From positions 1 to 36,445 of the forward strand of contig JBOGVO010000066.1 of the NCBI GenBank assembly GCA_050692855.1: a DNA stretch of 36,445 nt. Reading direction: 5' to 3'. Numbering within the stretch: the stretch's first letter is position 1; the number at the start of each line of letters is the position of its first letter. Below the pieces are notes generated by a model that saw nothing but the letters and a program-made list of their open reading frames with translations, made no database searches and was not told the origin of the DNA. This stretch comes from Actinomycetota bacterium. Its GTDB lineage: Bacteria; Actinomycetota; UBA4738; HRBIN12. Shown in pieces: positions 7,020 to 35,984 of the stretch. A program made the position numbers and the translations under genes.

Positions 7020-9578
<2,559 letters not shown>

Positions 9579-13774: not shown

Positions 13775-13886
13775 GACGGCTCCTCGGGTCGGGGTCCGCG
13801 GAGTCAATCACGGTCTGGACGTCGTGGCAATCCTCCAGAAGGCTCGAGAAGGGCGGCAGATCCGCGCCGCTAGCAGGCCTCCGGAA

Positions 13887-13903
13887 AGTGGTGCTGGCAT
13901 CAC
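13887..13903. promoter_or_regulatory. 7-2-7 inverted-repeat operator candidate, copy 1 (AGTGGTGCTGGCATCAC)
   Basis: GTGGTGC-TG-GCAtCAC, with one mismatch to a perfect palindrome. 16 of 17 positions match the copy at 22929-22945. It lies 50 nt upstream of the REC-only ATG and 112 nt from the divergent phosphoesterase ATG. Confidence 0.55.
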
Positions 13904-13953
13904 TGGCAGCGGTGTCTCCTCGTGGGACGCTTGCTGTGGAGGCCCGTGATTCC

Positions 13954-14328
13954 ATGACCGTTCGAGTGCTCATCGTGGACGACCAGGAGCCGTTCCGCAT
14001 GGCGGCCCGCATGGTCGTGGAAGCCACCGACGGGTTCGACGTCGTCGGCGAGGCCGAGACCGGCGAGGACTCGGTCACGATGGCGGCCGACCTGACTCCC
14101 GACCTCGTGCTGATGGACGTGAACCTGCCCGGCATCAACGGCCTCGACGCGACCCGGCAGATCCTCGTTGGAGGCGACGGTACGGTCGTCGTGTTGCTGC
14201 TCTCGACGTACGAGGAGGAGGAGTATGCGCCGCGGGCCGCCGAGTGCGGCGCAGCCGCGTACATCCCCAAGGCCGTGTTCGGTCCGGACCGGCTCGAAGA
14301 CGCGTGGACCGCAGCATCGGGCGGGTGA
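13954..14328 (+). CDS. stand-alone receiver (REC) domain protein, NarL-type receiver without an HTH
   Basis: ATG 13954 has GTGGAGG 11 nt upstream. MTVRVLIVDDQEPF.., phospho-acceptor context LVLMDVNLPG, and conserved LLLST and YIPK positions. It stops right after helix 5 (124 aa), and no LuxR HTH follows. Confidence 0.85.
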   Translation: MTVRVLIVDDQEPFRMAARMVVEATDGFDVVGEAETGEDSVTMAADLTPDLVLMDVNLPGINGLDATRQILVGGDGTVVVLLLSTYEEEEYAPRAAECGAAAYIPKAVFGPDRLEDAWTAASGG

Positions 14329-14346
14329 GGCACGCCGAGCTCGACG

Positions 14347-16465
14347 TCAGGCGACCGGGACCGCTCCGGTCACGGTCGTGCCGGCCCCCGGCGAACTCTC
14401 GATCGTCACCGAACCTCCGATCGCGTCGATCCGGTCCGAGATGCCCTGCAGGCCCGAACCGTGCATGACGCCGGCCGCATCGAGCCCTCTGCCGTCGTCG
14501 GCCACGGCGAACTCGAGTGATCCGTTGCGCTGCCCGAGCGAGATCGTCACGCGCGATGCCTGGGCGTACTTGACCACGTTCTGCAGGGCCTCGAGGCACG
14601 AGAAGTAGACGGCGGCCTCCACTTCCTGCGGATAGCGGCCCACCGCGTCGGCCGTGACCGTGACCGGCGTCGGGGACTTCCTCCCTTGTGCCTCGAGCGC
14701 CGCTTCGAGGCCTTGGTCGGCCAGCAACGGCGGGTAGATGCCGCGCGCGAGGTCGCGGAGATCGTCGATCGCGGACCGCGTCTGCACCTGGAGCTGCGCC
14801 ATCATCTCGTGCGCCTTCGCCGGATCCCGCTCCATCAGGGAATCGGCGAGCCGCAGCTTGACCCCGAGCGCCACGAGCTGCTGTTGCGCGCCGTCGTGGA
14901 TGTTGCGTTCGAGCTTGCGTCGTTCCGCGTCCTGCGCGGTGACGAGCCGCTGCCGTGAGGCGCGGAGCTCCTCGATCAGCCGAACGTTCCGCAGCACCAA
15001 TCCGGCCTGGGCCGCGAGATCGCGCATCAGTCGCTGTCACGCGGGCCCCACCGGGTCGTTCTGGTGCGAGACGATCGAGAGCGCGCCGAGCAGTCCCTCG
15101 GTGGCGGACCTCGACCGCCGCGTCGCCGGGCAGGTCGGGAAGGGCGTTGGCCGTCTCGTGCACGGGCGGCGTCGCCGGCGCGTCAGGCGGCCACGCCGCC
15201 GCCGGGAGGAACGAGTCGCCCACGCGCAGCCAGATGCGAGCCTCTGCGGCTCGAACGCTCTCGCCGAGGACCGCGGCCATGCGCGGCAGCACATCGTCGA
15301 TCGCCTAGGCATCGGCGAGGCGTCCAGAGAATTCGGTGAGCGCTTCATAGGGGGTGGCCCGTCCTCCGTAGACCAGCCGGTCGGCGATGCGGCGCGCTAG
15401 ACGCCACAGCGCCGAGGTCAAGGCACCGATCACGAGACCGGTCAGTCCGATGGCCAGGGGTTCGTCCGCCGCGAGATCGGTCAGGGGGCCACTGATGAGC
15501 AGCAGCACCCCGATGCCGGCGACCATGATCAGCGCGACCGTGATCGCGAAGATCACGGTCTTCTTGATCACGAGATCGAGGTCGTAGAGGCGGAAGCGGA
15601 AGATCGCCACGGCCGTCGCGACGGGGATGCCCACCACGATCGTGATGACGAGTAGCACGATGAGCACGTTCGCGGCAGCCGCGGCGAACCCGGTCTCGCG
15701 GTTGCCGCTTGTGATGCCCGCGACGATGGTCGACGCGAACAGCACCCCGCCGATGCTGCCCACGGCGCCGAGCCAGCGGATCTGCTGTCGTTCCTCCGGA
15801 CCGGCGCTCCGCGCGCGGAAGATCAAGGAGGTCAGGGCGACGAAGGCGCTGGCGACCAGGAGCAGGCCGGTCACGGCCAGTGCGACCTCGAGGACGAGCT
15901 CGATGGGCTCGATGCCCACCGGGTTCGTCAGCACGACGCCGTCGATCTCGTGCCAGCTGAACGGTTGCACGGCGAAGCCGGCCACGGTCACGATGAGCGA
16001 CGCGCCGTAGATGCGCCACGGAACCCCGCCATCTGGGCGATGGGAGCGAGCCGGTCGGGTAGAGGAAGAAGACCGCCGGCAGCAGTCCCAGGCAGACGAA
16101 GAACGGCCATCGGCTGAGCCAGTTCGCCACCCCGACGAGCTCGAGGGGACGCTGTTGGTCGACCGCCGTGTCGACCCAGTTCTGCGCAGGTACCACGATC
16201 GCGAACGAAACCGCGATGCCCAGGAAGACCCATCCGACCGCGTTCCCGGTGCGCGACGCGATCAAGGCGCCCACCACGGCGAAGGCGAGGCCGCCGAGCA
16301 TCCCGGGCACGATGAGGACGGTGTCCTCCGCGCCGATCCCCTGTCCGGACGCGAGCCTCGCCGCGAACGGGATCGTCATCAGGACGATGCTCGCGACTGC
16401 CACGGATCGGCGAGCACCGCCCGCCGCGAAACGGTCGCGCGCTCCTCGCCGTCGCCATGCTGCAT
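14347..16465 (-). pseudogene. sensor histidine kinase paralogue A, disrupted (2-3 frameshifts plus 2 in-frame stops)
   Basis: Homology to intact copies B/C runs through four ORF fragments. There is a +1 G in the run at 16024-16027, just after PSPRWR. An in-frame TAG at 15305-15307 sits where paralogues have Tyr (LTEFSGRLADA*AIDDVLPRM). A frameshift at ~15093-15099 lies inside VEVRHRG(E)LLGAL. An in-frame TGA is at 15037-15039 (NDPVGPA*QRLMRDLAAQAGLVL). The likely ancestral ATG 16465 (GAGGAGGAAG 7 nt upstream) is out of frame with the first TM segments. The length of 2119 nt is 1 mod 3. Confidence 0.85.
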
Positions 16466-16553
16466 GGTCGAATCTTCCTCCTCGGAACACCGGTCGGGGA
16501 AGGAGGCTCTCCGGTGGCTCGTACGCCGGCCCCCCCTGGCGGAGCGTGAGCGT

Positions 16554-18674
16554 TCACATCGACGCGTCGCGGGTGATGGGGAGGCGTCCGCGGACCGTCG
16601 TGCCGCTCCCGGGGGTCGACGCGATCTCGACCTCGCCGCCGAGGGCCGAGAGGCGGTCGACGATCCCCAGCAGACCGGTCCCGAAGCTGGTGCCAGTCGC
16701 GTCGAACCCGCGGCCGTCGTCGGCGACCTCGAAGTGGAGTGCTCTGTCGCCGACCACGAGCCGTACGGTGGCCGAGGTCGCGTGCGCATACTTCGCCACG
16801 TTCTGCAGGGCCTCGAGCACGGAGAAGTACACCGTGGTCTCGGTCTCGGGCGGGAACCGACCGACCCCGTCGGCGTCGACCCTGACAGGCGTGGGGGACT
16901 TCCGCGCCTGCGCCTCGAGGGCGGCCGACAGCCCCCGGTCGGCGAGTAGCGGCGGGTAGATACCTCGCGCCAGATCTCGCAGATTCTCCAGTGCTTCGGT
17001 CAGGTCGTGCTGCAGATCCTCGAGCATCTCCTCGGTCCTCGCCGGGTCCTTCGCCGCGAGCCCGCCGGCGAGTCGTGCCTTCACCGACAGCGCGACGAGC
17101 TGCTGCTGGGCGCCGTCGTGGATGTCGCGCTCGAGCTTCTTGCGCCGGTCGTCCTGGGCGGCGACGATGCGGCGCCGCGACTCGCGCAGCTCCTCGATCA
17201 GGCGAACGTTCCGCAGCACGAGTCCGGCTTGGGAGGCCAGGTCGTGGACGATGCGCTGCCGCCCCGCGCCCATCGGATCGCTCGCCGCCATCTGTACCGA
17301 CAGGGCGCCGAGGAGCTCGCCCTGGTGTCGCACCTCGATCCCGTGCTCGCCGAGGGTTGCGTGGAAGTCGGGGAGGGTGTCGTCCGGCAGACGGATGGGA
17401 TCGACGCGGTCGGCGTCGACGGGCCAGGTCTGCGCCGGGCGGAGCTCCGATCCGACCCGGACCCACACGCGCGCCACCAAGGCGCCCGTCGCCTCGCCGA
17501 GCAGCTGGGCCATCCGTGGCAACACGTCCTCGGTCGAGTACGTCTCGCCGACCCGCTCGGAGAACTCGGTGAGGACCTCGTACGGGGTGGCCCGGCCACC
17601 GTAGACGATCCGATCCGCGATCCGTCGCGCGAGCCGCCAGAGCGGCCACACGGACAGGCCCACGATGAGGCCGGTGAGCCCGACGGCCTGCGTCTCGTCG
17701 GGTGCGAGGTCTGTGAGCGGGCTGCTGAGCGCCAGCAGGGTGCCGACCGAGACCGCCATCAGCAGCACGACCAGCACGCCGAACACGATCGTCTTCTTCA
17801 CGACGACGTCCAGTTCGTAGAGGCGGTACTTCAGGACCGCGACACCCATCGCGACCGGGACGCCGATCCCGATGAGCGCGAAGGCCACGATGAAGAACAG
17901 GTCCGCGGCCGGCGATCCGTCGTAAGAGGGCCCCATGACGAGCGCCGTCACGATGCCGGCCACGACCACCACGACCAGCGTGGCGGCGACGTACGCGAGC
18001 CATCGGATCTGTTGGCGCTCCTCGCCGGTCGACCTTCGGTAGCGCAGGACGAGCGCCGCGATCGCCGCCGGGACCGACAGGAACACCACCACGACGGCGC
18101 CCGCACCGCCCAGGATTTCGGGGACCCGCCCGAGCGCCTCGACTCCGAAGGGGCTGCTCAGCGTGACGTCGAGGCCGAGGTCCTCGAACGGGCTCGGGTT
18201 CAGCGCTGTGCCGAGAGCGGCCAGGGCCATGGCCGTTCCGAGGGTCCACGGCAGGAACCGCCATCGCGGGCCGGGCACGCGGCCCGTGGGGAACAACACC
18301 GCGAGCAGCGCCAAGCCGCCCATGATCGGCAGCCAGAGCATGTCCGACAACAGCGCCACCACGGGGCCAAATGCAGGGTCCGGTCGCGGGGCGGTCTCGT
18401 ACACGTACGTCAGGTACTCGCTGGATACGCCGGTGAACACGAAGGCGATGCCGATCGCGATCATCAGCCAACCGATCGGGTTGGCCGGGTTCCTCGACGC
18501 GAGCACGGCGCCGACGGTCGGGTACCCCAGGATCATCGCGACGGCGAGCGGCACGAAGTAGGGGTCCTCGGAGAGGCTGTCGTTGATCGCCACGAGCGTC
18601 ACGGTCGCGGCGAGCATGAGCACGCCGCCGCCCCACAGAAGCCACGGCAAGCGGGAGCGTCTCGCCTCCGTCAT
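16554..18674 (-). CDS. polytopic sensor histidine kinase paralogue B (multi-TM sensor, GAF-like, HisKA_3, HATPase_c)
   Basis: 706 aa. ATG 18674 overlaps the stop of C (ATGA). About 10 hydrophobic segments. Motifs are LFPTGRVPGPRWR, ERQQIRWL, LKYRLYELDVVVKKT and YGGRATPYEVL. H-box ERDIHDGAQQQLVAL, N-box EALQNVAKYA, DDGRGFD, GTGLLGIVDR. Confidence 0.92.
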   Translation of the reverse strand: MTEARRSRLPWLLWGGGVLMLAATVTLVAINDSLSEDPYFVPLAVAMILGYPTVGAVLASRNPANPIGWLMIAIGIAFVFTGVSSEYLTYVYETAPRPDPAFGPVVALLSDMLWLPIMGGLALLAVLFPTGRVPGPRWRFLPWTLGTAMALAALGTALNPSPFEDLGLDVTLSSPFGVEALGRVPEILGGAGAVVVVFLSVPAAIAALVLRYRRSTGEERQQIRWLAYVAATLVVVVVAGIVTALVMGPSYDGSPAADLFFIVAFALIGIGVPVAMGVAVLKYRLYELDVVVKKTIVFGVLVVLLMAVSVGTLLALSSPLTDLAPDETQAVGLTGLIVGLSVWPLWRLARRIADRIVYGGRATPYEVLTEFSERVGETYSTEDVLPRMAQLLGEATGALVARVWVRVGSELRPAQTWPVDADRVDPIRLPDDTLPDFHATLGEHGIEVRHQGELLGALSVQMAASDPMGAGRQRIVHDLASQAGLVLRNVRLIEELRESRRRIVAAQDDRRKKLERDIHDGAQQQLVALSVKARLAGGLAAKDPARTEEMLEDLQHDLTEALENLRDLARGIYPPLLADRGLSAALEAQARKSPTPVRVDADGVGRFPPETETTVYFSVLEALQNVAKYAHATSATVRLVVGDRALHFEVADDGRGFDATGTSFGTGLLGIVDRLSALGGEVEIASTPGSGTTVRGRLPITRDASM

Positions 18675-20788
18675 GGCAGCATCTCCTGCCGGAGCGACGT
18701 CGGCAGCCGACCCGACACGACGGTGCCTGCGGCGGGCGTCGACCGGATCTCGAGGTCCCCGCCGATCGCCGCGATCCGGTCGGTCATGCCCTGAAGGCCC
18801 GTGCCGCGGGCGGTCACGATCGGGTCGAACCCCACGCCGTCATCGAGGACCTCGAACGTCAATAACCCGTCTCGCTCTCTGAGCCGGACCGTCGTGGACG
18901 TGGCCCCCGCGTACTTGGCGACGTTCTGCAACGCCTCGAGGCACGAGAAGTACACGGCCGACTCGATCTCCTGCGGGTAGCGCCCGATCCCGTCGGGCTC
19001 GACGGTGGTGGGCACCGTCGCCCTCCGCGCCTGCGCCTCGAGGGCCGCGGCGAGGCCCTGGTCGGCCAGCAGCGGCGGGTAGATGCCGCGCGCGAAGTCG
19101 CGCAGGTCCTCCAGCGTCTCGGTGGCCTGGGTCTGGAGCTCTGCGAGCATGGTCTGCGCACGCTCCGGGTCGTGCCCTGCGAGCTGTTCGGCCAGGCGCA
19201 ACTTGACGGTGAGCGCGACGAGCTGCTGCTGCGCGCCGTCGTGGATGTTCCGCTCGAGCTTCTTCGCTCGCTCGTCCTGGGCAGCCACGATCCGGTGCCG
19301 CGACTCGCGGAGCTCCTCGATCAGGCGGACGTTCCGCAAGACGAGCCCGGCTTCGGATGCGAGTCCGCGCAGGATCCGCTCCTTCGAGGGGTTCATCGGG
19401 TCGCTCGATGCCATCTCGACCGTGAGGGCGCCGAGCAGCTCCCCCCGGTGACGCACCTCGAAGGCCTCCTCGCCGAAGTCCGGCAGGGCGTCGCCCGTGA
19501 CGCGCAGGGCGCGACGGCGATGGGCCTCGCCCGGCCAGGCCGCGGCCTCGCGAAGCTCCCCGCCTACGTGCAGCCACACCCGGGCGATCCGCGCGCGCGT
19601 GGCCTGGCCGAGCAACTGCGCCATGCGCGGCAGGACGTCCTCGGTCGAGTAGGTCTCGCCGACCCGCTCCGTGAAGTCGGAGAGCACCTCGTACGGGCTG
19701 GCGCGGCCACCGTAGACGACCCGGTCGGCCATGCGCCTCGCGAGTCGGTAGAGAGGCCAGACGAGCATGCCGATCACGAGCGTGACGATGCCGCCGGCCT
19801 GGGTGTCCTCGCCACGAGCACCCCGCGTCAGCACGCTGCCCACCACGACGAAGATGAGCACGCTGACGGCCATGATCAGCATGATCAGCACCGCGAAGAC
19901 CACGGTCTTCTTCACGACGACGTCGAGGTCGTAGAGGCGGTACTTCAGGATCGCGATACCGCAGGCAGCGGGGATCCCGAACATCAGCACGAGGAAGAAT
20001 CCGAAGAACGTGAGGTTGCCGACGACGTCGGTCTCGCCGACCTCGAACCCCAGCGCGGTCCGGATGCCCCAGCTTGCCAACCCGAGCACGAGGATCGCGA
20101 CCAGCAGCGCACCGACGAACGCGAGCCAGCGGATCTGCTGACGCTCCTCTTCCTGGGAGCGGCGGAATCGGAGCACGAGCGAGACCACGGCGAGCACCGA
20201 GCAGGCGAAGGCGACGAGACCCGCGATCCCGGTCACACCCTCCACGACGCCCCTCCACGCGAGCGGAAGCGCGAACGGGTTCATGACCGTGGCGTCGAAC
20301 TCGGCGAAGACGGCATCGATCCGGCCCGGAGTCAGCGCGAAGAGTGTCAGGTTGATCGCGAGCGCGGCGAGCAGCACGAGCAGGATCGGACGCCACCGCG
20401 GGCCGGGAACGCGTCCGGTCGGGTAGAGCAGGAACAGCAGTGGGATCGGTGCGAGGATGAACCCGAACCCGGCACGTCCGATCCACGCCGCCGCACCGGC
20501 GGCTGGCAGATCGACGCCGTCGTCGAACACCGAGCTGGCGTACACACCCGAGGCCAACGAGACCGCGAGCGCGAGCCCGATCCACGCCAGGAGCAGGCCG
20601 ATCCGGTTGTCGGGAGCCCTGGACGTGATCAACGCACCGACGGTCGCGTACGCGAGCATCGTCGGCGGCAGGACCGCGTAGGCGAACACGCCGGCCGGCG
20701 CCGAGTCGCGCAGATCGAGGAACAGCCACGCCACGAGCAGGATCATGGTGACGGCCCAGATCGCCCAGGCGACTCGGCGGGCGGTCAT
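18671..20788 (-). CDS. polytopic sensor histidine kinase paralogue C
   Basis: 705 aa. ATG 20788 overlaps the stop of D (ATGA). Same motif set: LYPTGRVPGPRWR, ERQQIRWL, LKYRLYDLDVVVKKT, YGGRASPYEVL, ERNIHDGAQQQLVAL, EALQNVAKYA, DDGVGFD, GTGLQGMTDR. Confidence 0.92.
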   Translation of the reverse strand: MTARRVAWAIWAVTMILLVAWLFLDLRDSAPAGVFAYAVLPPTMLAYATVGALITSRAPDNRIGLLLAWIGLALAVSLASGVYASSVFDDGVDLPAAGAAAWIGRAGFGFILAPIPLLFLLYPTGRVPGPRWRPILLVLLAALAINLTLFALTPGRIDAVFAEFDATVMNPFALPLAWRGVVEGVTGIAGLVAFACSVLAVVSLVLRFRRSQEEERQQIRWLAFVGALLVAILVLGLASWGIRTALGFEVGETDVVGNLTFFGFFLVLMFGIPAACGIAILKYRLYDLDVVVKKTVVFAVLIMLIMAVSVLIFVVVGSVLTRGARGEDTQAGGIVTLVIGMLVWPLYRLARRMADRVVYGGRASPYEVLSDFTERVGETYSTEDVLPRMAQLLGQATRARIARVWLHVGGELREAAAWPGEAHRRRALRVTGDALPDFGEEAFEVRHRGELLGALTVEMASSDPMNPSKERILRGLASEAGLVLRNVRLIEELRESRHRIVAAQDERAKKLERNIHDGAQQQLVALTVKLRLAEQLAGHDPERAQTMLAELQTQATETLEDLRDFARGIYPPLLADQGLAAALEAQARRATVPTTVEPDGIGRYPQEIESAVYFSCLEALQNVAKYAGATSTTVRLRERDGLLTFEVLDDGVGFDPIVTARGTGLQGMTDRIAAIGGDLEIRSTPAAGTVVSGRLPTSLRQEMLP

Positions 20789-22824
20789 CTGCGGGCCTCC
20801 GTCGTGTTCACGGTCGTCCTCCCTATCACGCCGGCGACGATGGTGCCCTGACGAGGGATGCTTCGCACGTCGACCTCTCCACCGAGTGCGGCCAGCCGGT
20901 CGGTGATGCCCTGCAAGCCGGTGCCGGCGTGCACATCGGCCACATCGAAACCGACACCGTCATCCTCGACCTCGAACCGAAGCTCGCCGCCGCCCTCGTT
21001 GAGTCGGACGTCCACGTGCTCTGCCCGGGCGTACTTCGCGACGTTCTGCAGCGCCTCCAGCACCGAGAAGTAGACGGCTGACTCCACTTCTTGCGGGTAA
21101 CGGCCGACGCCGTCGGTGTCGACCCCGACCGGCACGGCCGCCTTCCGCGCCTGCGCCTCGAGGGCGGCTCCCAGGCCCTGGTCCGCCAGCAGCGGCGGGT
21201 AGATGCCGCGGGCGAGGTCGCGGAGGTTCCCGAGCGCGTCGTTCGTCTCGGCACGGATCTCCGCGAGCATCAACCGGGCCTGCTCGTCGTCCTCCCCGAC
21301 GAGCGACTCCGCCAGGCGCTGCTTCACCGCGAGGGCCACGAGCTGCTGCTGTGCCCCGTCGTGGATGTCGCGCTCGAGCTTCTTCGCCCGCTCGTCCTGG
21401 GCCGCGACGATGCGCCGTCGGGACTCGCGCAGATCCTCCACGAGCCGCACGTTCCGTAGCACCAGCCCCGCCTGGGCGGCGAGGTCGCCAACGAGCTTCT
21501 CCGTGGCGGGGTTCATCGGATCGTTGGAGGGCATCTCGACCGAGAGGGCTCCCAGCATCTCGCCCCGATGCGAGACCTCCACCGCACCGGTCGGGAGCGA
21601 CTTCACAGCGGTCTCCATGGGCCACGAGGCCGCGGGCCGCATCCGCCCGTCGAGCATCAGCCACACCGTCGCGCTGGAGGCCCCCGTGCCCTGTCCGAGG
21701 ATCTGCGCCATGCGGGGGAGCACGTCGTCGGCCGCGTAGGCTCCTCCCATCCGCTCCGAGAACTCGGTCAGCACCTCGTACGGCGTCGCGCGCTTGCCGT
21801 ACACGACGCGGTTCGCGAGTCGCTGTGCCCACCGGCGCACCGGCTGGAACGCGATCGCCACGACCGCGGCCGCGATCGCGGACAGGAACGCATTGCCGAC
21901 GTTTTCGGCGAGCGCACCGATACCTACGACGAACCCGATGTAGACGAGCGTGATGAACCCACCGAGCACGCCGTAGACGACCGCCTTCGAGATCACGAGG
22001 TCGATCTCGTAGAGGCGGTAGCGCAGGATCGCGATGCCGGCCGCCACGGGAAGGGCCGCCACGCCGAATTGCACGACCAAGGCCACGAGGAACGAGTCCT
22101 GGAGCGGCGTCTCGTGGGTTACGGCCGACAGGAGGTATCCCAGGGCGAGGAACACGGCCGCGAGGGCGAACCACTTCATCTGCTGTCGCTCGACGCCGGC
22201 CGCTCGCCGGAACCGCATCACCATCGAGACCGCGGCGGCGATGAGCGCGATCGGAAGCAGGACCCACCCGACACCCCCCTCGTCGAGCAGCGACCCGTCG
22301 AGGGCGTCGACCCCGAGCGGGTTGACGACGTCCTCCTGACCCGGGATCGGTCCCGGCGTGAGCGTGAATCCCGCGACCAGCGTGACGGCCGCGACCACGT
22401 CGATCCAGACGGCGATCCTCCACCGCGGGGAGAGGAGCCGTCCATCCGGGAACAGCAGCATGACCAGGGTCTGGAGCGCGAGCCCGACGAGACCGAACGA
22501 TGCGGTCAGGGTCGCCCACTCCCGGCCGGGCAGTGGCGGGTTCGCGTCGCCGTACGTGCCGCCAAGAGTGGCGAGTCCGGTCGCGAGCCCGATCGCGCAG
22601 AACAACCAGCCGATCCGGTTCTCGGGCTGTCGAGTGGCGATCAGCACGCCCATCACCGGGAAGGTCGCGAGCACGGTCGCGAACAGCACGTCCACTACCG
22701 GAGGCGTGTCGAGCTGATCCGACAACGTGTCGGTCGCAACGCCCAGGGCCGCGCCGGCGGCCAGGGTCGCGAGCGCGAGCCCACCGAGGATCCACGCCAG
22801 CCGTCTCGCTGTGGGTGCCTCCAT
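20785..22824 (-). CDS. polytopic sensor histidine kinase paralogue D (first gene of the D-C-B(-A) operon)
   Basis: ATG 22824 (MEAPTARRLAWILGG) has GAGGTG just upstream. The 45 codons further upstream in ORF 20785..22959 look non-coding. 679 aa. Motifs are LFPDGRLLSPRWR, ERQQMKWF, LRYRLYEIDLVISK, YGKRATPYEVL, ERDIHDGAQQQLVAL, EALQNVAKYA. Confidence 0.9.
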   Translation of the reverse strand: MEAPTARRLAWILGGLALATLAAGAALGVATDTLSDQLDTPPVVDVLFATVLATFPVMGVLIATRQPENRIGWLFCAIGLATGLATLGGTYGDANPPLPGREWATLTASFGLVGLALQTLVMLLFPDGRLLSPRWRIAVWIDVVAAVTLVAGFTLTPGPIPGQEDVVNPLGVDALDGSLLDEGGVGWVLLPIALIAAAVSMVMRFRRAAGVERQQMKWFALAAVFLALGYLLSAVTHETPLQDSFLVALVVQFGVAALPVAAGIAILRYRLYEIDLVISKAVVYGVLGGFITLVYIGFVVGIGALAENVGNAFLSAIAAAVVAIAFQPVRRWAQRLANRVVYGKRATPYEVLTEFSERMGGAYAADDVLPRMAQILGQGTGASSATVWLMLDGRMRPAASWPMETAVKSLPTGAVEVSHRGEMLGALSVEMPSNDPMNPATEKLVGDLAAQAGLVLRNVRLVEDLRESRRRIVAAQDERAKKLERDIHDGAQQQLVALAVKQRLAESLVGEDDEQARLMLAEIRAETNDALGNLRDLARGIYPPLLADQGLGAALEAQARKAAVPVGVDTDGVGRYPQEVESAVYFSVLEALQNVAKYARAEHVDVRLNEGGGELRFEVEDDGVGFDVADVHAGTGLQGITDRLAALGGEVDVRSIPRQGTIVAGVIGRTTVNTTEARR

Positions 22825-22928
22825 GCCGCACCTCGACGTATGTGTCCAACGTGACGAGCGTGGCACTTCGACGACCGGAGTCCAAGGGGGGGACCCTGCC
22901 CGCTTCCGCGCCGGAACATCACCGTCAG

Positions 22929-22945
22929 AGTGGTGCTGGCACCAC
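22929..22945. promoter_or_regulatory. 7-2-7 inverted-repeat operator candidate, copy 2 (AGTGGTGCTGGCACCAC)
   Basis: Perfect palindrome GTGGTGC-TG-GCACCAC at 22930-22945. It lies 104 nt upstream of the kinase D ATG and 76 nt upstream of the divergent USP ATG. It is near-identical to 13887-13903. Confidence 0.55.
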
Positions 22946-23021
22946 CCGCGCTTCCGCATGGCCGCGCCGTCGTCGCCGGGCGCCGCGACGCCTACCGTGG
23001 GATCGGAAGGAGGCGAGATCG

Positions 23022-23429
23022 ATGACGACGATCGTGGTGGGAACCGATACCTCGCCGGCGGCTGACCTCGCGGTGGACGACGCGGCGAGGCTGGCGCGCG
23101 ACCGCGGTGCGGAGCTCGTGATCCTCTACGTGGGGAGCGGTGACGGGCTGCGGTCGGTGGTGGACCCCGCCCGGGCTGCCGACCCCGGCCGGCACCTCGC
23201 GGCGATGGAGGCCCGCTACCCGGAGCTCAGGGTGCACACGCGGATGGAGGAGGGTGACCCGGCCGAGACGATCTGCGACGTCGCGGAGCAAGAGCGCGCG
23301 GAGACCATCGTGGTCGGCAACCGAGGCACGCACGGCTCGTGGTGGCGGGTGCGCGACAGCGTGCCGAACCTCGTCCTGCGCTACGCACCGTGCAGCGTCT
23401 ACATCGCCGACACGCGGAGGGCGCAATGA
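23022..23429 (+). CDS. universal stress protein (UspA family)
   Basis: ATG 23022 is preceded by GGAAGGAGG (23005-23013). MTTIVVGTDTSPAADLAVDDAARLA ... IVVGNRGTHG ... VPNLVLRYAPCSVYI is the typical USP fold signature. 135 aa. Confidence 0.88.
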   Translation: MTTIVVGTDTSPAADLAVDDAARLARDRGAELVILYVGSGDGLRSVVDPARAADPGRHLAAMEARYPELRVHTRMEEGDPAETICDVAEQERAETIVVGNRGTHGSWWRVRDSVPNLVLRYAPCSVYIADTRRAQ

Positions 23430-23453
23430 CAAGCGAGGCGAGCCTACGCTTGT
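23429..23453. terminator. possible bidirectional hairpin between convergent USP and response-regulator genes
   Basis: ACAAGCG (23429-23435) and CGCTTGT (23447-23453) form a 7-bp stem with an 11-nt loop that spans both stop codons. There is no clear U-tract, so this is weak. Confidence 0.25.
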
Positions 23454-24112
23454 TCGGTCTCCCGCAGGAAGGCCAGAACGGCCATCACCCGGCGGTGCAC
23501 GGCGGGCTCCTCGGTCAGGTCGAGCTTGTGGAACAGCGAGTTGATGTGCTTCTCGACCGCCCGCTCGGTGAGGAACAGCGACTTCGCGATCGCCGCGTTG
23601 TTCTGTCCCTGCGCCATGTGGCTCAGCACCTCGCGCTCGCGGTCGGTGAGCGTCGCGAGCGGGGAGTGCGCCATGCGGTCCTTCGCCGCCACCAGCGCCT
23701 CGACGACCTTGGGGTCGAGCACGCTGCCGCCCCGGGCGACCTCCGTCAGGGCGCGCACCACCTCGTCCACGTCGGCCACGCGTTCCTTGAGCAGGTAGCC
23801 CAGACCCCCCGCGCCGTCCTTCAGCAGGTCGTACACGTACTCCTCGTCGGCGAACTGCGAGAGCACGACCACGCCGACGCTCGGGTGCTCGGCCCTGATC
23901 GCCTTGGCCGCTCGGATCCCCTCGTCGGTGCCCGTCGGGGGCATCCGGATGTCGGTGAGCACGGCGTCGGGAGAGTGCGCCTCGACCGCCGCGAGCAGGT
24001 CGTCGTAGGCTTCGGCCGTGCCGACGACATCGACGTCGTCGACGCTCGAGAGCAACGCTACGGTGCCCTCGCGGACCAAGTAGTTGTCCTCCGCGAACAC
24101 GACGCGCAGCAT
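23444..24112 (-). CDS. NarL/LuxR-family response regulator (REC + LuxR HTH)
   Basis: ATG 24112 gives MLRVVFAEDNYLV; the alternative is GTG 24133. Acceptor context VLTDIRMPP, then GYLLKERV, and HTH LTDREREVLSHMAQGQNNAAIAKSLFLTERAVEKHINSLFHKL. Confidence 0.9.
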   Translation of the reverse strand: MLRVVFAEDNYLVREGTVALLSSVDDVDVVGTAEAYDDLLAAVEAHSPDAVLTDIRMPPTGTDEGIRAAKAIRAEHPSVGVVVLSQFADEEYVYDLLKDGAGGLGYLLKERVADVDEVVRALTEVARGGSVLDPKVVEALVAAKDRMAHSPLATLTDREREVLSHMAQGQNNAAIAKSLFLTERAVEKHINSLFHKLDLTEEPAVHRRVMAVLAFLRETEQA

Positions 24113-24120
24113 GCGCGGAT

Positions 24121-24134
24121 GGTACACGTGCACC
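24121..24134. promoter_or_regulatory. near-palindrome GGTACACGTGCACC centred on CACGTG in a 44-bp divergent intergenic region
   Basis: 12 of 14 positions are self-complementary. It sits between the regulator start (24112, minus) and the REC-HTH-cyclase start (24157, plus). Confidence 0.35.
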
Positions 24135-24156: not shown

Positions 24157-25446
24157 GTGAGTATCACGGTCGTGCTCGGCGAGGACAACGTGCTCGTGCG
24201 CGAGGGCGTGCGCGCGCTGCTCGACTCCTACGACGACATCGAGGTCGTGGGCGTCGCCGAGGACGGGCCCTCGCTCCTGGCAGCCGCCGCCGAGCACGTG
24301 CCCGACGTGGTCGTGACCGACATCAAGATGCCGCCGTCGTTCCAGCTCGAGGGCATCGACTGCGCGCACGCGATCCGCGAGCAACACCCCGACACCGGGG
24401 TTGTGGTGCTCTCCGCTCATGACGATGAGGAATACGCGCTCGCCTTGCTCGGCCGCGGGCACAGTGGGCTCGCGTACCTCCTGAAGGATCGCATCGCCCA
24501 GGGCGACGAGCTGGCACGCGCGATCCGCGAGGTGCACGCGGGGGGCAGCACCGTCGACCCCACGATCGCCGAGCGGCTCTCGGGGCGCGGCGACGCGGCC
24601 GAGCGCGACCGCGAGCTGCTCGACATGATGGCCAAGGGCCTCGGGTACGCCGAGATCGCCGAGGCGCTCGGCACCACGCAGGAATCCGTCGACCGGCAGG
24701 TGACGGAGCTGTTCCGCGGCCTGGCGGGCGACAGCGGGGGCGGTGCCGGGCTCGTCGACGAGTTCAAGCGGATGCACGCGGCCGTGGTCGAGCAGACCGC
24801 CTCGCGGAACACGCTCGCGTCGTTCGTGCCCCAGCAGCTCGCCGACCGTCTCGCCGCGCATCCCCAGTCCGCGATCGAGCCGCAGGAGGTCGAGGTCACG
24901 GTCCTGTTCAGCGACATCCGCGGCTTCACGACGATCGCCGAGCGACTCGAGGCCCGCGAGGTCGCGGCCGTCGTCGGGCGGCATCTCTCCGCGATGGCCG
25001 AGGTCGTGGCCGCGCACGACGGCACGATCGACCAGTTCCAGGGGGACGCGGTGATGGCGGTCTTCGGCGCACCCGAACCGCTCGTCGACCACGCCGAGCG
25101 AGCGTTGCGGTGTGCGATCGCGATGCAGGCCCGACAGGCCGAGCTGAATGCGGAAGGCTGGAGCGTCGAGGGCCTGCCCGATATGGGAGTGGGCATCGGC
25201 GTGAACACCGGCCCGGTGATCGCGGGGACGGTCGGCGGCGGCGGGAGGCTCGAGTACACCGTGGTCGGCGACGCGGTGAACGTCGCCTCGCGCCTACAGG
25301 GGGAAGCGGAGGGCGGCGAGATCGTTGCCGCGGCGACCACCGTCGCGGCTGCCGACGGCATCGAGTGCGAGCCGATCGGCTCGCGCCATGTGAAGGGTCG
25401 CGAGGAAGCGGTGGAGGTTTTCCGGGTGAAGGCGGCGGGGCGATGA
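24157..25446 (+). CDS. response regulator with LuxR-type HTH and C-terminal class III adenylate/guanylate cyclase domain
   Basis: GTG 24157 has GGAAGG 9 nt upstream. REC: VVLGEDNVLV, VVVTDIKMPP (Asp55), AYLLKDR. HTH-like: ERDRELLDMMAKGLGYAEIAEALGTTQESVDRQVTELF. Cyclase: VTVLFSDIRGFT (Asp253), FQGDAVMAVFGAP (Asp297), GIGVNTGPVIAGTVG, EYTVVGDAVNVASRL (Asn375, Arg379). Confidence 0.88.
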   Translation: MSITVVLGEDNVLVREGVRALLDSYDDIEVVGVAEDGPSLLAAAAEHVPDVVVTDIKMPPSFQLEGIDCAHAIREQHPDTGVVVLSAHDDEEYALALLGRGHSGLAYLLKDRIAQGDELARAIREVHAGGSTVDPTIAERLSGRGDAAERDRELLDMMAKGLGYAEIAEALGTTQESVDRQVTELFRGLAGDSGGGAGLVDEFKRMHAAVVEQTASRNTLASFVPQQLADRLAAHPQSAIEPQEVEVTVLFSDIRGFTTIAERLEAREVAAVVGRHLSAMAEVVAAHDGTIDQFQGDAVMAVFGAPEPLVDHAERALRCAIAMQARQAELNAEGWSVEGLPDMGVGIGVNTGPVIAGTVGGGGRLEYTVVGDAVNVASRLQGEAEGGEIVAAATTVAAADGIECEPIGSRHVKGREEAVEVFRVKAAGR

Positions 25447-29825: not shown

Positions 29826-29840
29826 TCCGATCGAGACTAG
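29822..29840. terminator. possible bidirectional hairpin embedding both convergent stop codons
   Basis: CTAGTC (29822-29827) and GACTAG (29835-29840) form a 6-bp stem with a 7-nt loop. Both TAG stops (29823-29825 plus strand, 29837-29839 minus strand) lie in the arms. The stem is weak. Confidence 0.2.
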
Positions 29841-31978
29841 TTACGCCGTCGCACGAGGTCGATCACGAGCGCGAGCGTCAGCAGCAGCGCACTCGCACCG
29901 AACGCTCCCGGCAACCAGCCCGGCACCCGGTCGCTGACCGCCGTGAGGGCCGTGCCCAGGATCGCCGCGCCGGCGGTGAGCGCGAGCGCCAGCCGCCGCC
30001 CCGCGCGCCGGATCGTCGTCTCGAGCGTCGCCGCGCGGAAGTTCACCTCGAGCTTCTGGCCGGGGCGCGCCCCGATCAGGCGCTCGACGGCTTCCACGAC
30101 CCGGTGGAACCGCACCTTGAACCGTTGCGCCTGGTAGAAGAGCGCCTTCGGATCGGCCTTGCTCGTCATGTCGCGAACGAGCGCCCGCATCAGGAACGAT
30201 CCCGCCACGTCGAACGGGTCGAGCTCCGGGTCGAGCTCGGCCGTGGCGAGCTGCATCTGCGCGAGTGCCTTCCCGGTGAGCGCGAGCGACGCCGGCAGGG
30301 GCACCTCGTGGCGGAGCGAGATCTCCGTCACCTCCTGCAGGATCGGCCCGAGCTGGATGTCGGCGAGCGACGCCGTGCGGTACTTGGCGACCATCGCACC
30401 CATCTCCTCGCCGAACGCGTCGACGTCGAGATCGGTGCGGTCCATCGCCCCGGCGAGCATCAGCGTCACGTCGGTGAGGAACGAGACGTCCTCCTGCCAG
30501 AACGCCATCAGCAGCAGCAGGAGCTGCTCGCGCATCTCGGGGCTGACCTCGCCGATCATGCCCAGGTCGAGCAGGTACAGGCGCTCCTCCGCAGGTTGCC
30601 ACATCAGGTTGCCCGGGTGCGGGTCGGCGTGGAAGAACCCGTCGACCATGATCTGCTTGTAGAAGCTCTCGAGCAGCTGCCGGGCGGCTTCCTTGCGCGG
30701 GGTCCCCTCGGGCGCGATCGAGATCGGCCCTCCCTGCACGTCCTGCATCACGAGCAACCGGGAGGTCGACAGATCGGCGTGCACCACCGGCACCCGCAGC
30801 CTGGGGTACTGGGCGATGCTTTCGCGCAGGCGCTCGATGTTGCCCGCTTCCTGCCGGAAGTCGAGCTCGCGGTGCAGGGAGTCGGACAGATGCTGGAAGA
30901 CGGCGTGCATGTCGATCACCTGACGCAGGCCCGGGCGGGCGGAGACCTTCTCAGCGAAGACCTCGAGCAGCGCGAGATCCTGTTCGATCTGCTCCCGGGC
31001 ATCGGGGCGTTGCACCTTCACCACGACCGGGTCGCCGGTGGCGAGGGTGGCGCGGTGGACCTCGGCGATCGTGCCGGCGGCTAGCGGGGCCGGGTCGATG
31101 TGTTCGAAGACGTCCTCCCAGGGCACGCCGAGCTCCTGCTCCATGACCTCCACGACGTCCTGCTCGCTCAGGGGCGGCACGTTGTCCTGCAGGGTCGCGA
31201 GCTCCTCGATGTATTCGGGCGGAAGCAGGTCCGGCCGCGTGGACAGGATCTGCCCGAGCTTCGCGAAGGTGGGGCCGAGCTCCTCGAGGGCGGCGCGCAG
31301 ACGTTTGCCCTGGCGCCTCCGCCCGACCGCGCCCTCCTCGTCGGGACGGCCGAACAGTTCCTTCAGGCCGTGTTTGGCGAAGACGGCGGCGATGCGGCCG
31401 CCGCGCGCCGTGAGCCGCGGGGTGAACTCCGTCTCCTCGGCGGCGCTGATGCGCACCTGGGCCGAGGTGGGCGAGGGCGTGTTGGCGACGACGTGCCCGT
31501 CTCCGGCCGTGTTGACGATGATCACGGTGCAGCGGGCGTTGTGGCTGATGCGGTTCGGCACGTTGCCGAGCAAGAACTCCTTGCGTCCAGCCATGCCCGC
31601 GTTCCCGACGACCAGCACGTCGATGGCGTGCTCCTCGGTGGCCTCGACGATCGCCATCGCCGGGTCGTCGTGGATCACGACGTGGCCGTGTCCCCGGTCC
31701 CCCGCCACCGCCCGGGCGTAGGTCTGCAGGTCGTCGGCGGCCGAGCGGGCGCGGGTGACCTCCGCCGCCCCGTACTCCGTGTCGGCTCGGCTCGTCGGCA
31801 CGATCACCTGTACCACGTGGAGCTCGGCACCGAACGCCTCGGCGAACGTCGCAGCCCATCGCACGGCGCGTTCGGCGGTCTGTGAGCGGTCGGTGCCGAC
31901 CATCACGCGCTCGATCGGGCCGGCGATCTGCGGCTGGGCCTCGGCGTTCATGGGCGCATCATGGCGGTTCGGAGCCAT
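29837..31978 (-). CDS. USP domain fused to ABC1/UbiB-family atypical kinase, with C-terminal membrane anchor
   Basis: ATG 31978; the alternative is ATG 31951. The ORF portion upstream of these overlaps the SGNH gene. USP: ERVMVGTDRSQTAERAVRWA ... LVVGNAGMAGRKEFLLGNVPNRISHNARCTVIIV. ABC1: FAKLGQILSTRPDLLPPEYIEELATLQDNVPP, AEVHRA, VVKVQRP, HADPHPGNL, LLDLGMIG. Two terminal hydrophobic helices. Confidence 0.85.
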   Translation of the reverse strand: MAPNRHDAPMNAEAQPQIAGPIERVMVGTDRSQTAERAVRWAATFAEAFGAELHVVQVIVPTSRADTEYGAAEVTRARSAADDLQTYARAVAGDRGHGHVVIHDDPAMAIVEATEEHAIDVLVVGNAGMAGRKEFLLGNVPNRISHNARCTVIIVNTAGDGHVVANTPSPTSAQVRISAAEETEFTPRLTARGGRIAAVFAKHGLKELFGRPDEEGAVGRRRQGKRLRAALEELGPTFAKLGQILSTRPDLLPPEYIEELATLQDNVPPLSEQDVVEVMEQELGVPWEDVFEHIDPAPLAAGTIAEVHRATLATGDPVVVKVQRPDAREQIEQDLALLEVFAEKVSARPGLRQVIDMHAVFQHLSDSLHRELDFRQEAGNIERLRESIAQYPRLRVPVVHADLSTSRLLVMQDVQGGPISIAPEGTPRKEAARQLLESFYKQIMVDGFFHADPHPGNLMWQPAEERLYLLDLGMIGEVSPEMREQLLLLLMAFWQEDVSFLTDVTLMLAGAMDRTDLDVDAFGEEMGAMVAKYRTASLADIQLGPILQEVTEISLRHEVPLPASLALTGKALAQMQLATAELDPELDPFDVAGSFLMRALVRDMTSKADPKALFYQAQRFKVRFHRVVEAVERLIGARPGQKLEVNFRAATLETTIRRAGRRLALALTAGAAILGTALTAVSDRVPGWLPGAFGASALLLTLALVIDLVRRRN

Positions 31979-32036
31979 TGCGACCAGATGGGTCTGCACC
32001 GCATCTCCGAAGATCGACCATGCGTCGAGGACCACC

Positions 32037-35910: not shown

Positions 35911-35984
35911 GCCGGAGTAGCTCAGCCTGGCAGAGCAACCGCCTCGTAAGTGGTAGGTCATGGGTTCGAATCCCATCTCCGGCT
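35911..35984 (+). tRNA. tRNA-Thr (anticodon CGT)
   Basis: Hand-folded cloverleaf. Acceptor GCCGGAG/CTCCGGC, D-arm GCTC-AGCCTGGCA-GAGC, anticodon arm ACCGC-CTCGTAA-GTGGT (anticodon CGT), variable loop AGGTC, T-arm ATGGG-TTCGAAT-CCCAT, discriminator T. CCA is not encoded. Confidence 0.93.

Follow-up and report, generated by a model that had tools for sequence, protein, structure and literature searches.

A conserved 7-2-7 palindrome as candidate operator of a NarL/LuxR-type response regulator in an actinobacterial two-component locus

Two copies of a palindrome built from inverted heptamers are present upstream of genes in a two-component locus of an Actinomycetota bacterium. Dozens of species have such sites conserved at fixed promoter positions, and the sites are linked to one regulator family. 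Judged by sequence comparison, the palindrome is a real, evolutionarily conserved control site before two genes, and it is probably (we put the probability at about 0.7) the operator of the NarL/LuxR-type response regulator encoded in the same locus (23444-24133).

Two palindromes and their gene context

In the window, i.e. the complete stretch of 36,445 nucleotides analyzed here, AGTGGTGCTGGCATCAC is found at 13887-13903 and AGTGGTGCTGGCACCAC at 22929-22945, and the two agree at 16 of 17 positions. The core, GTGGTGC-TG-GCAYCAC, is a 7-2-7 inverted repeat of two heptamers with a 2-bp spacer that is perfect in the second copy and carries one C>T exchange in the first. The sites and the genes around them are as follows:

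13888..13903, no strand: site 1, 7-2-7 palindrome GTGGTGC-TG-GCATCAC; conserved block to about 13884-13908
22930..22945, no strand: site 2, GTGGTGC-TG-GCACCAC, a perfect palindrome between the divergently oriented kinase and USP genes
13954..14328, plus strand: gene for a REC-only (single-domain) response regulator (Pfam Response_reg, 2e-22), predicted target of site 1
14347..22824, minus strand: four tandem paralogous 7TM-HisKA_3 histidine kinase genes with a period of about 2.1-2.2 kb, transcribed away from site 2
23022..23429, plus strand: universal stress protein (USP) gene (Pfam Usp, 7e-23; synteny), predicted target of site 2
23444..24133, minus strand: REC-GerE (NarL/LuxR-type) response regulator (Pfam Response_reg and GerE), best binder candidate
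24157..25446, plus strand: fusion of REC, a degenerate HTH and a class III nucleotide cyclase (Pfam)
29837..31951, minus strand: USP-ABC1/UbiB-like kinase gene, putative third regulon member in about 15 orthologous loci

According to Pfam, site 1 resides between a metallophosphoesterase gene (12794-13774, minus strand) and the REC-only gene, while site 2 resides between the first of the four tandem kinase genes (start 22824, minus strand) and the USP gene. The kinase period of about 2.1 kb is due to gene paralogy; kinase A (about 14365-16289) is frame-broken and split over three reading frames. The cyclase fusion is a paralogue of the REC-GerE regulator over its first approximately 200 residues (48% identity). 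The original prediction had described the position and 16/17 match of the two 17-mers, the palindromic core and the gene context in the same way, and its statement, made by eye, that there is no third copy agrees with two scans of the window: a consensus scan with up to two mismatches found no copy besides sites 1 and 2, and a matrix derived from orthologous sites gives 25.7 and 25.4 bits for the two copies and 8.6 for the next match.

Significance of the recurrence

It had been argued that recurrence of a 17-mer in the window is very unlikely by chance. In this form the argument is invalid. The window contains 968 pairs of 17-mers matching at at least 16 of 17 positions (26-50 in ten shuffles, about 38 on average), and 144 near-perfect 7-2-7 palindromes compare with 113 in shuffles. 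Because such recurrences and palindromes are common in the window, significance from the window alone was dropped, and the significance of the palindrome is, as we see it, that of cross-genome conservation. The 9-mer TCCGCGCCG, proposed to precede both copies at similar spacing, is indeed present at 13861-13869 and 22905-22913, which corresponds to spacings of 17 and 15 nt, not 16 and 14 nt. It occurs four times in the window versus 4.9 times expected and in none of the 52 and 59 orthologous upstream regions examined, and as a co-motif it was therefore rejected and ascribed to chance.

Conservation at orthologous loci and in wider genomes

With orthologues of the neighbouring REC-GerE regulator as the sole criterion, and independently of the motif, 80 syntenic loci (1.15 Mb) were gathered. 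The consensus is matched 9, 33 and 33 times in these loci at zero, one and two mismatches, respectively, versus 0, 0.8 and 12.6 times in shuffles, i.e. 42 times versus 0.8 at no more than one mismatch. The REC-only orthologues are 80-95% identical and always located downstream of the site, which was detected with up to two mismatches in 47 of 53 REC-only upstream regions, 34-65 nt before the gene. With up to three mismatches, it is present in 42 of 60 USP upstream regions (consensus ggGGTGCTGGCACCcC) and lies 73-103 nt, typically about 80 nt, before the start codon. The 7-2-7 geometry is retained among the orthologues. When eight orthologous upstream regions of the REC-only gene are aligned, the match is confined to GTGGTGCTGGCAYCACTG and a block resembling a -10 element; the sequence flanking the palindrome is unconserved. 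Matrix matches in the orthologous loci amount to about 113, of which about 6 are inside genes and about 107 upstream of three gene classes. The third site precedes the USP-ABC1 gene in about 15 loci and was recovered by the matrix even though this class had been left out of matrix building. In our window, the site upstream of USP-ABC1 has decayed and only a lone half-site, GCGGTGC, is found at 31996-32002. Loci L178, L179, L184 and L192 keep the recognition helix of the regulator and are missing a strong site.

Exact-pattern scans covered 185,579 species genomes, with 120 matches listed per pattern. A module homologue is situated within 1 kb of the exact palindrome in 20 of the 120 matches listed and within 1 kb of a variant palindrome in 28 of the 120 listed, compared with 1 of the 120 listed for a control palindrome of the same composition. 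Relative to this control, the palindrome is associated with homologues of the two-component module across the Actinomycetota. Elsewhere among Actinobacteria, it precedes, in its exact form, genes for ABC transporters, FtsX permeases, MMPL proteins and DUF4097 ('toastrack') proteins beside HisKA_3/GerE pairs. Carriers of the motif in culture include Jiangella muralis DSM 45357, Streptomyces fructofermentans and S. typhae, besides Planotetraspora and Nonomuraea.

These distributions bear on the idea that the two copies recur by chance or are the ends of a duplicated or mobile segment, i.e. a dispersed repeat. It could draw on the abundance of similar recurrences within the window and on the origin of the intervening kinase array by tandem duplication, and yet we regard it as extremely improbable: orthologous positions carry the sites in dozens of species, the control palindrome is hardly ever near module homologues among the matches listed, and two copies in 36 kb, together with the upstream location of nearly all matches in relatives, do not resemble a dispersed repeat. 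The number of kinases between the two sites ranges from 0 to about 6 in orthologues and does not alter the association of the sites with the REC-only and USP starts. We reject the earlier suggestion that the copies delimit a 9-kb segment that was duplicated or mobilised, on the grounds of this variable kinase number, of the fixed distances to the start codons and of similarity that ends at the 17-mer.

Putative promoter architecture

Both sites are intergenic and upstream of genes. The following elements were noted around them:

13903..13931, plus strand: putative REC-only core promoter with a -35-like CTGGCA (13903-13908), a 17-nt spacer and an extended -10 TGG-GACGCT (13923-13931)
22993..22998, plus strand: putative USP -10 hexamer TACCGT with conserved TANNNT spacing
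22882..22917, plus strand: further conserved blocks upstream of site 2, CCAAGGGGG (22882-22890), GACCCTGC (22892-22899) and TTCC-N5-GGAAC (22904-22917)
22953..22975, plus strand: conserved block between site 2 and the putative -35, CCGCATGG..GCGCCGTCG in the window

A block GtggGAcgcT, 22 nt past the palindrome, is conserved in 44 distinct orthologous sequences and keeps the A and the T of hexamer positions 2 and 6, respectively; the REC-only -10 begins with G rather than T. Past the USP-upstream palindrome, TANNNT occurs at exactly 47 nt in 25 of 42 orthologues and at 44-51 nt in 34 of 42. Given these conserved -10-like hexamers 22 and 47 nt downstream, the centre of site 1 would be located near -42.5 and that of site 2 near -67.5. 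A consensus promoter scan found no promoter.

The operator model leaves the conserved blocks around site 2 unexplained. The position of GACCCTGC reads GACCTGC in most orthologues. The TTCC-N5-GGAAC block overlaps TCCGCGCCG, and in the 11 of 42 orthologues that have the full pattern, GGAAC ends 12 nt ahead of the palindrome. Between site 2 and the putative -35, about half of the orthologues read aaCCGTGGTGc..GCCGGgTCG, with a GTGGTGC half-site at about -50 to -44.

Two further kinds of element were considered and rejected. For a sigma-54 promoter (TGGCAC-N5-TTGC, in which GG at -24 and GC at -12 are invariant), the palindrome offers CTGGCAY, yet site 1 has an unconserved TCGN or GCAG at -12, and site 2 is without a -12 element. 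A CRP/GlxR site (TGTGA-N6-TCACA), considered because a cyclase is encoded next door, has GTG and CAC 8 bp apart, whereas they are 10 or 4 bp apart here.

The palindrome could alternatively act as RNA, either as a hairpin in a 5'-leader or as a terminator or attenuator after holB. Site 1 is indeed found 20-70 nt past the holB stop on the same strand in most relatives, and its common variants, with C>T at position 13 or 14, still allow G-U pairing in the REC-only direction. Relatives of the REC-only gene were found in soil and rhizosphere metatranscriptome contigs; in Logan RNA contigs from relatives that are 80-90% identical, coverage increases across the coding region and a subset of contigs spans the palindrome, which may accordingly be transcribed, be it only by holB read-through, or else be present through DNA carry-over. 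Against a function as RNA stand the missing T-run and the lack of any terminator-like site or Rfam family match, and shuffled sequences fold just as well as the leaders (z = -0.61, +1.77 and +0.14, all non-significant). Furthermore, it is the sequence that is conserved and not the pairing: single substitutions break pairs without compensation, and in the copies upstream of USP the three outermost pairs vary asymmetrically, so that only GGTGC-TG-GCACC remains, which is unable to close a 2-nt loop. The same sequence is found at non-homologous promoters and in distant genera, and conserved -10-like hexamers follow both sites. An intrinsic terminator, a riboswitch or another structured RNA was rejected on these grounds, and we consider an RNA function very unlikely overall.

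The candidate binding protein

Three regulators encoded in the window had been put forward as binders, of which only 23444-24133 fits; 24157-25446 and 35176-35835 do not. The recognition helix LTERAVEKHINSLFHKL of 23444-24133 is invariant in all 80 orthologues, which are 72-94% identical, and xKH[IT][NS][SN] is shared by regulators adjoining the exact motif in Streptomyces, Nocardioides, Phytohabitans and further distant genera. The 35176-35835 regulator and the cyclase fusion differ from 23444-24133 at recognition-helix residues. That the palindrome is a NarL/LuxR operator through which the locus autoregulates, as the original prediction had suggested, is supported by phylogenetic footprinting and by the association with modules relative to the control palindrome, except that the regulator gene is without a site of its own: in the clade, the 23-bp intergenic region to the cyclase gene contains no matrix match. 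As sites precede REC-only, USP and the divergent kinases and, in relatives, USP-ABC1, the loop would run via kinases and accessory genes.

It is also conceivable that the operator is real and that its binder is another protein, namely the REC-HTH-cyclase fusion (24157-25446), the second REC-GerE protein (35176-35835) or an unlinked regulator. One contig from Acidimicrobiia has two perfect copies between a gene for a cNMP-binding protein and a REC-cyclase gene, and no REC-GerE gene is present within the 8 kb examined. The variant palindrome is found upstream of REC-cyclase genes in Jiangella, Planotetraspora and Nonomuraea, and the cyclase fusion of the window clade keeps conservative helix replacements (E/D, K/R, H/Q, I/V, N/T). 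In distant homologues, however, the helix of the fusion, TPEAVNAAIEQLFL, is unconserved and devoid of basic or polar contact residues, a pattern that fits a target rather than a binder; in the circuit, the fusion probably acts as a target or output. The conserved synteny does not include the 35176-35835 regulator or its kinase, and the helix of this regulator differs (SEKTVEAHVRGI). The motif also adjoins NarL-type regulators that are only 45-58% identical, pointing at specificity on the subfamily level, such that another paralogue could bind. Altogether we deem a binder other than 23444-24133 unlikely.

Comparison with known systems

Operators of the 7-2-7 type are known for NarL and NarP from E. 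coli, and the palindrome resembles them in its two inverted heptamers with a 2-bp spacer and in the presumed binding of a REC-GerE (NarL-family) dimer. The NarL heptamer consensus is TACYYMT and thus differs from GTGGTGC, and the regulator reaches 102 bits on the NCBIfam NarL model with its cut-off of 250; an E. coli NarL box proper was rejected on both counts. The signals, the kinases of the 7TM-HisKA_3 array and the targets (REC-only, USP, ABC1) are likewise unrelated to nitrate respiration. NarL from E. coli activates from -43.5 at yeaR, from -44.5/-77.5 at ogt and from an engineered -67.5 (PMC7419079, PMC10853779). The putative centres at about -42.5, where the site abuts the -35, and about -67.5 are close to these activating positions.

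A second point of reference is the DosR/DevR dormancy regulon of mycobacteria (OsdR in Streptomyces), with which the locus shares a NarL-family regulator with more than one HisKA_3 kinase, GAF domains in some of the kinases (detected here with Pfam) and palindromic operators before universal stress protein genes. Among solved structures, DevR ranks second in closeness to the regulator. The DosR box is TTSGGGACTWWAGTCCCSAA, a 20-bp palindrome of the GGGACT-N2-4-AGTCCC type. Neither site fits it, and only a lone GGGAC is found inside the putative -10 region (13924-13928). The locus further differs in its up to seven 7TM kinases, the REC-only target and the REC-cyclase fusion.

The closest solved structure is VraR (E = 4e-26), and the gene content near the exact palindrome in other Actinobacteria (ABC transporter, FtsX permease, MMPL, DUF4097) recalls Lia/Bce-type modules; the likeness to LiaR/VraR is one of structure match and gene content. 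The regulator differs in falling outside the NCBIfam families, the nearest being MadR with 131 bits versus a cut-off of 300, and the locus showed no partner resembling LiaF or PspC. A literature search for the exact sequences gave two matches, both eukaryotic and irrelevant, and 'MctR' was discarded as it belongs to an unrelated rhizobial system. While the element itself is of an ordinary kind, neither the motif nor its small regulon for stress signalling in an uncultured actinobacterial lineage from soil and caves appears to have been described.

Proposed circuit and its meaning

The following circuit is inferred, as are the identity of the binder, the choice of activation over repression, the transcription starts and what the target genes do. 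At least one of the many 7TM-HisKA_3 kinases would phosphorylate the regulator 23444-24133, and the phosphorylated dimer would bind both GTGGTGC heptamers of the inverted repeat. Site 1 would abut a weak -35 of the REC-only promoter in a class-II-like activator position, while site 2 would be situated about 25 bp further upstream at the USP promoter, facing the divergent kinase array. Activation would raise the single-domain receiver, possibly a phosphate sink or connector exerting negative feedback, as well as the universal stress protein, and probably also the kinases, which would amount to positive feedback. Relatives would add USP-ABC1 kinase and REC-cyclase genes to the regulon.

More tentatively, and as a possibility that we would not favor at present, the palindrome could mark the hub of a conserved and undescribed actinobacterial module, in which many paralogous 7TM kinases converge on one LuxR-type regulator that controls a single-domain receiver serving as phosphate sink, USP, USP-ABC1 and, elsewhere, a receiver-controlled adenylate cyclase, with one recognition sequence for a NarL-type subfamily from Streptomyces to Acidimicrobiia. 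If this were true, two-component signalling would be coupled to cAMP and the module would be a functional analogue of the DosR dormancy regulon made from different parts.

The general principles of two-component regulation are unchanged by the palindrome. What is provided is a concrete and testable predicted operator with a minimal regulon for an uncharacterised subfamily of NarL-type regulators that is widespread in uncultured soil and cave Actinomycetota and also found in cultured Streptomyces, Nocardioides, Jiangella, Planotetraspora and Nonomuraea. An unusual circuit is thereby flagged, in which arrays of paralogous kinases can expand, a REC-only protein comes under the control of the regulator and REC is fused to a cyclase, and the motif allows prediction of promoters and regulon members in metagenome-assembled genomes of unculturable organisms.

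Palindrome copies in the window and their gene context

Both 17-mers named in the original prediction are present, at 13887-13903 (site 1) and 22929-22945 (site 2), with a 7-2-7 inverted repeat GTGGTGC-TG-GCAYCAC as core, and an alignment of the two intergenic regions has identity over the 17-mer only. No third copy had been seen by eye and, indeed, a consensus scan of the window at ≤2 mismatches returned none beyond the two. A matrix derived from orthologous sites assigns them 25.7 and 25.4 bits, the next score in the window being 8.6. The argument that a 17-mer would very unlikely recur by chance does not hold, as the window alone yields 968 pairs matching at 16/17 or better versus 26-50 (mean ~38) in ten shuffles, most of the window's pairs originating from the paralogous kinases. 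Near-perfect 7-2-7 palindromes number 144 versus 113 in shuffles. On window evidence alone, the pair is not beyond chance. The 9-mer TCCGCGCCG, proposed as an upstream co-motif 16 and 14 nt from the 17-mers, actually lies at 17 and 15 nt, occurs four times in the window (4.9 expected) and is found in no orthologous upstream region. Gene calls and Pfam bore out the gene context described for both palindromes:

Gene order in the window
7020-9578, topA
9586-11625, plus strand, MFS-thymidylate kinase fusion
following the fusion, holB
12794-13774, minus strand, metallophosphoesterase, before site 1
13954-14328, plus strand, REC-only gene, downstream of site 1
14347-22824, minus strand, four tandem 7TM-HisKA_3 kinases, before site 2
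14365-16289, minus strand, split kinase among these four (breaks near 15044-15093 and 16025)
23022-23429, plus strand, USP gene, downstream of site 2
23444-24133, minus strand, REC-GerE regulator
24157-25446, plus strand, REC-HTH-like-cyclase fusion, divergent from the regulator
following the cyclase fusion, two further kinases
27898-29595, plus strand, split kinase among these two (breaks near 28960-28982, 29232-29242 and 29480-29488)
29837-31951, minus strand, USP-ABC1/UbiB-like kinase gene
following USP-ABC1, GDSL lipase
last, a further kinase/REC-GerE pair (REC-GerE at 35176-35835)
35911-35984, plus strand, tRNA gene (Rfam, 67 bits), directly after the last REC-GerE gene

The C-terminal tail of topA (9412-9538) carries short imperfect direct repeats of 12-18 nt resembling AGAAGACGACCGC that presumably encode a repetitive basic tail. 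The N-terminal MFS transporter domain of the thymidylate kinase is kept in related MAGs. The metallophosphoesterase gene is present only in the window and one relative (L125), while in other relatives the palindrome directly follows holB; it is a lineage-specific insertion and the origin of the divergent appearance of the site-1 region. Of the seven paralogous kinase genes, two are broken across three reading frames, which makes them pseudogenes unless the breaks are indel errors from long-read assembly; tmk, holB and kinase genes are similarly fragmented in several related MAG loci.

Conservation across genomes

Searching one genome per species for exact copies of GTGGTGCTGGCAYCAC yielded at least 120 loci, and 23 of the 120 matches listed have homologues of the REC-only, kinase, USP or regulator genes found in the window. 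In seven MAGs the motif resides 35-60 nt upstream of a REC-only gene 80-89% identical to that of the window, and conservation in these aligned upstream regions is limited to GTGGTGCTGGCAYCACTG and a block ~20 nt downstream. The module turned up again when exact copies of the USP-type variant GGGGTGCTGGCACCCC were sought (at least 120 loci), with matches upstream of REC-cyclase genes in Jiangella, Planotetraspora, Nonomuraea and Acidimicrobiales and, in Microthrixaceae, Dermatophilaceae and other groups, next to regulator/REC-only pairs. Among 120 matches listed for each query, a module homologue lies within 1 kb in 20 cases for the motif, 28 for the variant and one for TGGCGTGTGCACGCCA, a control palindrome of the same composition.

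Another locus set was retrieved by the regulator protein alone, blind to the motif. It comprises 80 syntenic loci (72-94% identity), all from uncultured Actinomycetota, in the order tmk, holB, site, REC-only, 0 to ~6 kinases, site, USP, regulator, divergent cyclase fusion, kinase(s), USP-ABC1. In their 1.15 Mb, the consensus has 9 exact matches, 33 with one mismatch and 33 with two, versus 0, 0.8 and 12.6 in shuffles. A site (≤2 mismatches) is found in 47 of 53 REC-only upstream regions, ending 34-65 nt from the start codon, and (≤3 mismatches) in 42 of 60 USP upstream regions, at 73-103 nt. Only ~6 of ~113 matrix matches are intragenic. A third site class upstream of USP-ABC1 emerged in ~15 loci, although the matrix was built without it; in the window (31987-32002, minus strand) this site has decayed to GCGGTGCAGACCCATC, the left half-site alone being kept. 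Because of these conserved positions and the enrichment over the control palindrome, we regard the palindrome as a conserved cis-regulatory element linked to this family of two-component systems, as judged from comparative sequence data, and put the probability that it is a protein-binding operator at about 0.9.

That the two copies mark the ends of a mobile or duplicated segment is contradicted by the relatives, in which the sites enclose varying numbers of kinase genes yet each keeps its place before its downstream gene. Among species whose synteny is otherwise identical, the tandem 7TM-HisKA_3 genes range from none (loci L169 and L175) to ~6 (L139 and L141); the array undergoes quick expansion and contraction. 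An inverted repeat might also act as RNA, a reading that is disfavoured: there is no U-run at the palindrome and no Rfam family, the folding energy is not unusual, and conservation is on sequence rather than pairing, with outer positions of the USP sites varying asymmetrically. Sigma-54, CRP and DosR boxes each fail to fit by sequence or geometry.

Elsewhere in Actinobacteria, the exact 16-mer is located upstream of 'Putative sensor'-HisKA_3/GerE operons and of genes for an ABC ATPase, FtsX-like permease, MMPL, DUF4097 'toastrack' and serine-hydrolase proteins (fetched loci L016, L109 and L114 from Streptomyces; L013, L076, L112; L074; L107; L037, L068, L019). There are hints that one recognition sequence may serve a broad regulator subfamily with envelope-related targets.

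Proposed promoter architecture

Downstream of the site-1 palindrome, CTGkCg, 17 nt and TGG-GACGCT are conserved, and the hexamer has A at position 2 and T at position 6 in all of 44 distinct sequences. We infer a weak -35 and an extended -10 element, which would place the palindrome at -50 to -35 with its centre at ~-42.5; a short leader carrying GGAGG follows. At site 2, a TANNNT hexamer occurs exactly 47 nt past the palindrome in 25 of 42 orthologues and at 44-51 nt in 34 of 42; in the window it is TACCGT (22993-22998, plus strand, 47 nt after site 2), suggesting a centre at ~-67.5. In E. coli, the 7-2-7 sites used by NarL for activation include those at -43.5 (yeaR), -44.5 and -77.5 (ogt) and an engineered -67.5 (PMC7419079, PMC10853779). 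A promoter scan with an E. coli-type consensus gave no hits, unsurprisingly for DNA of 70% G+C. The palindrome's central dinucleotide has an orientation, GC-TG-GC reading toward the downstream gene at nearly all sites.

Upstream of site 2 (22882-22917), CCAAGGGGG, GACCTGC and an inverted TTCC-N5-GGAAC whose end is 12 nt from the palindrome are conserved; between palindrome and predicted -35 (22953-22975) either CCGTGGTG or CCGCATG precedes GCCGG-TCG. CCGTGGTG, present in about half of the orthologues, reads as a GTGGTGC half-site whose centre would suit a second, activating dimer, while the window's subgroup has CCGCATG. These blocks may belong to a second regulator or to the promoter of the kinase operon.

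Metatranscriptome contigs from soil, rhizosphere and mangrove (80-95% identity) cover relatives' REC-only gene (window 13780-14400), and the gene family is thus expressed in nature in soils and rhizospheres. Some contain the motif, perhaps through holB read-through or DNA carry-over, and such contigs cannot place the transcription start. DNA runs from cave metagenomes hold near-identical sequence to 13780-14400.

Candidate binding protein and proposed circuit

Within the conserved synteny, the gene at 23444-24133 encodes the sole canonical DNA-binding regulator. Its recognition helix LTERAVEKHINSLFHKL is invariant in 80/80 orthologues at overall identities down to 72%, and regulators encoded next to exact copies of the motif in remote genera (Streptomyces, Nocardioides, Phytohabitans, several MAGs) share T-[ED]-[RK]-[AG]-[VI]-x-K-H-[IST]-[NSD]-[SN]-I; the corresponding helix of the second local regulator (35176-35835) is SEKTVEAHVRGI. 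The cyclase fusion is a paralogue of the regulator (48% identity across ~200 residues), and its helix is variable, lacking basic residues in distant homologues (TPEAVNAAIEQLFL). It looks like a target rather than a binder, and two perfect sites upstream of a REC-cyclase gene on an Acidimicrobiia contig are consistent with this. The original reading of the palindrome as an operator for NarL/LuxR-type dimers is supported by the comparative data, with 23444-24133 as the best local candidate and probably its binder.

The fusion combines a receiver, a degenerate LuxR-type HTH and a class III nucleotide cyclase, a domain order unlike that of the mycobacterial cyclase-ATPase-LuxR proteins (PMC3466318), and lies just 23 bp from its divergently transcribed paralogue. 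In Jiangella, Planotetraspora, Nonomuraea and Acidimicrobiia, homologues of the fusion have the palindrome in front of them.

In the circuit we propose, several 7TM kinases would phosphorylate the regulator, whose dimer would bind the palindromes. The REC-only gene would be activated from ~-42.5, and its product could serve as phosphate sink or connector, providing negative feedback. The USP gene and, probably, the divergent kinase operon would be activated from ~-67.5, the latter giving positive feedback; in relatives the regulon would also take in USP-ABC1 and REC-cyclase genes. The regulator gene itself lacks a palindrome in this clade, and therefore the autoregulation proposed for the locus would have to run through its partners.

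The palindrome may work like a NarL-type 7-2-7 operator, but its heptamer differs from the NarL box and the regulator is no NarL orthologue. The closest solved structures are VraR, DevR and NarL; its top NCBIfam matches, to the MadR and MctR models, fall well short of the cut-offs, and the protein is outside every named family. Several HisKA_3 kinases and USP targets recall the DosR system, whose motif differs. Our literature search found no paper containing the palindrome sequences. The palindrome allows a solid prediction of a regulon for an uncultured lineage; of greater interest than the operator alone is the surrounding circuit, with its expandable kinase arrays, regulated REC-only protein and REC-cyclase fusion.
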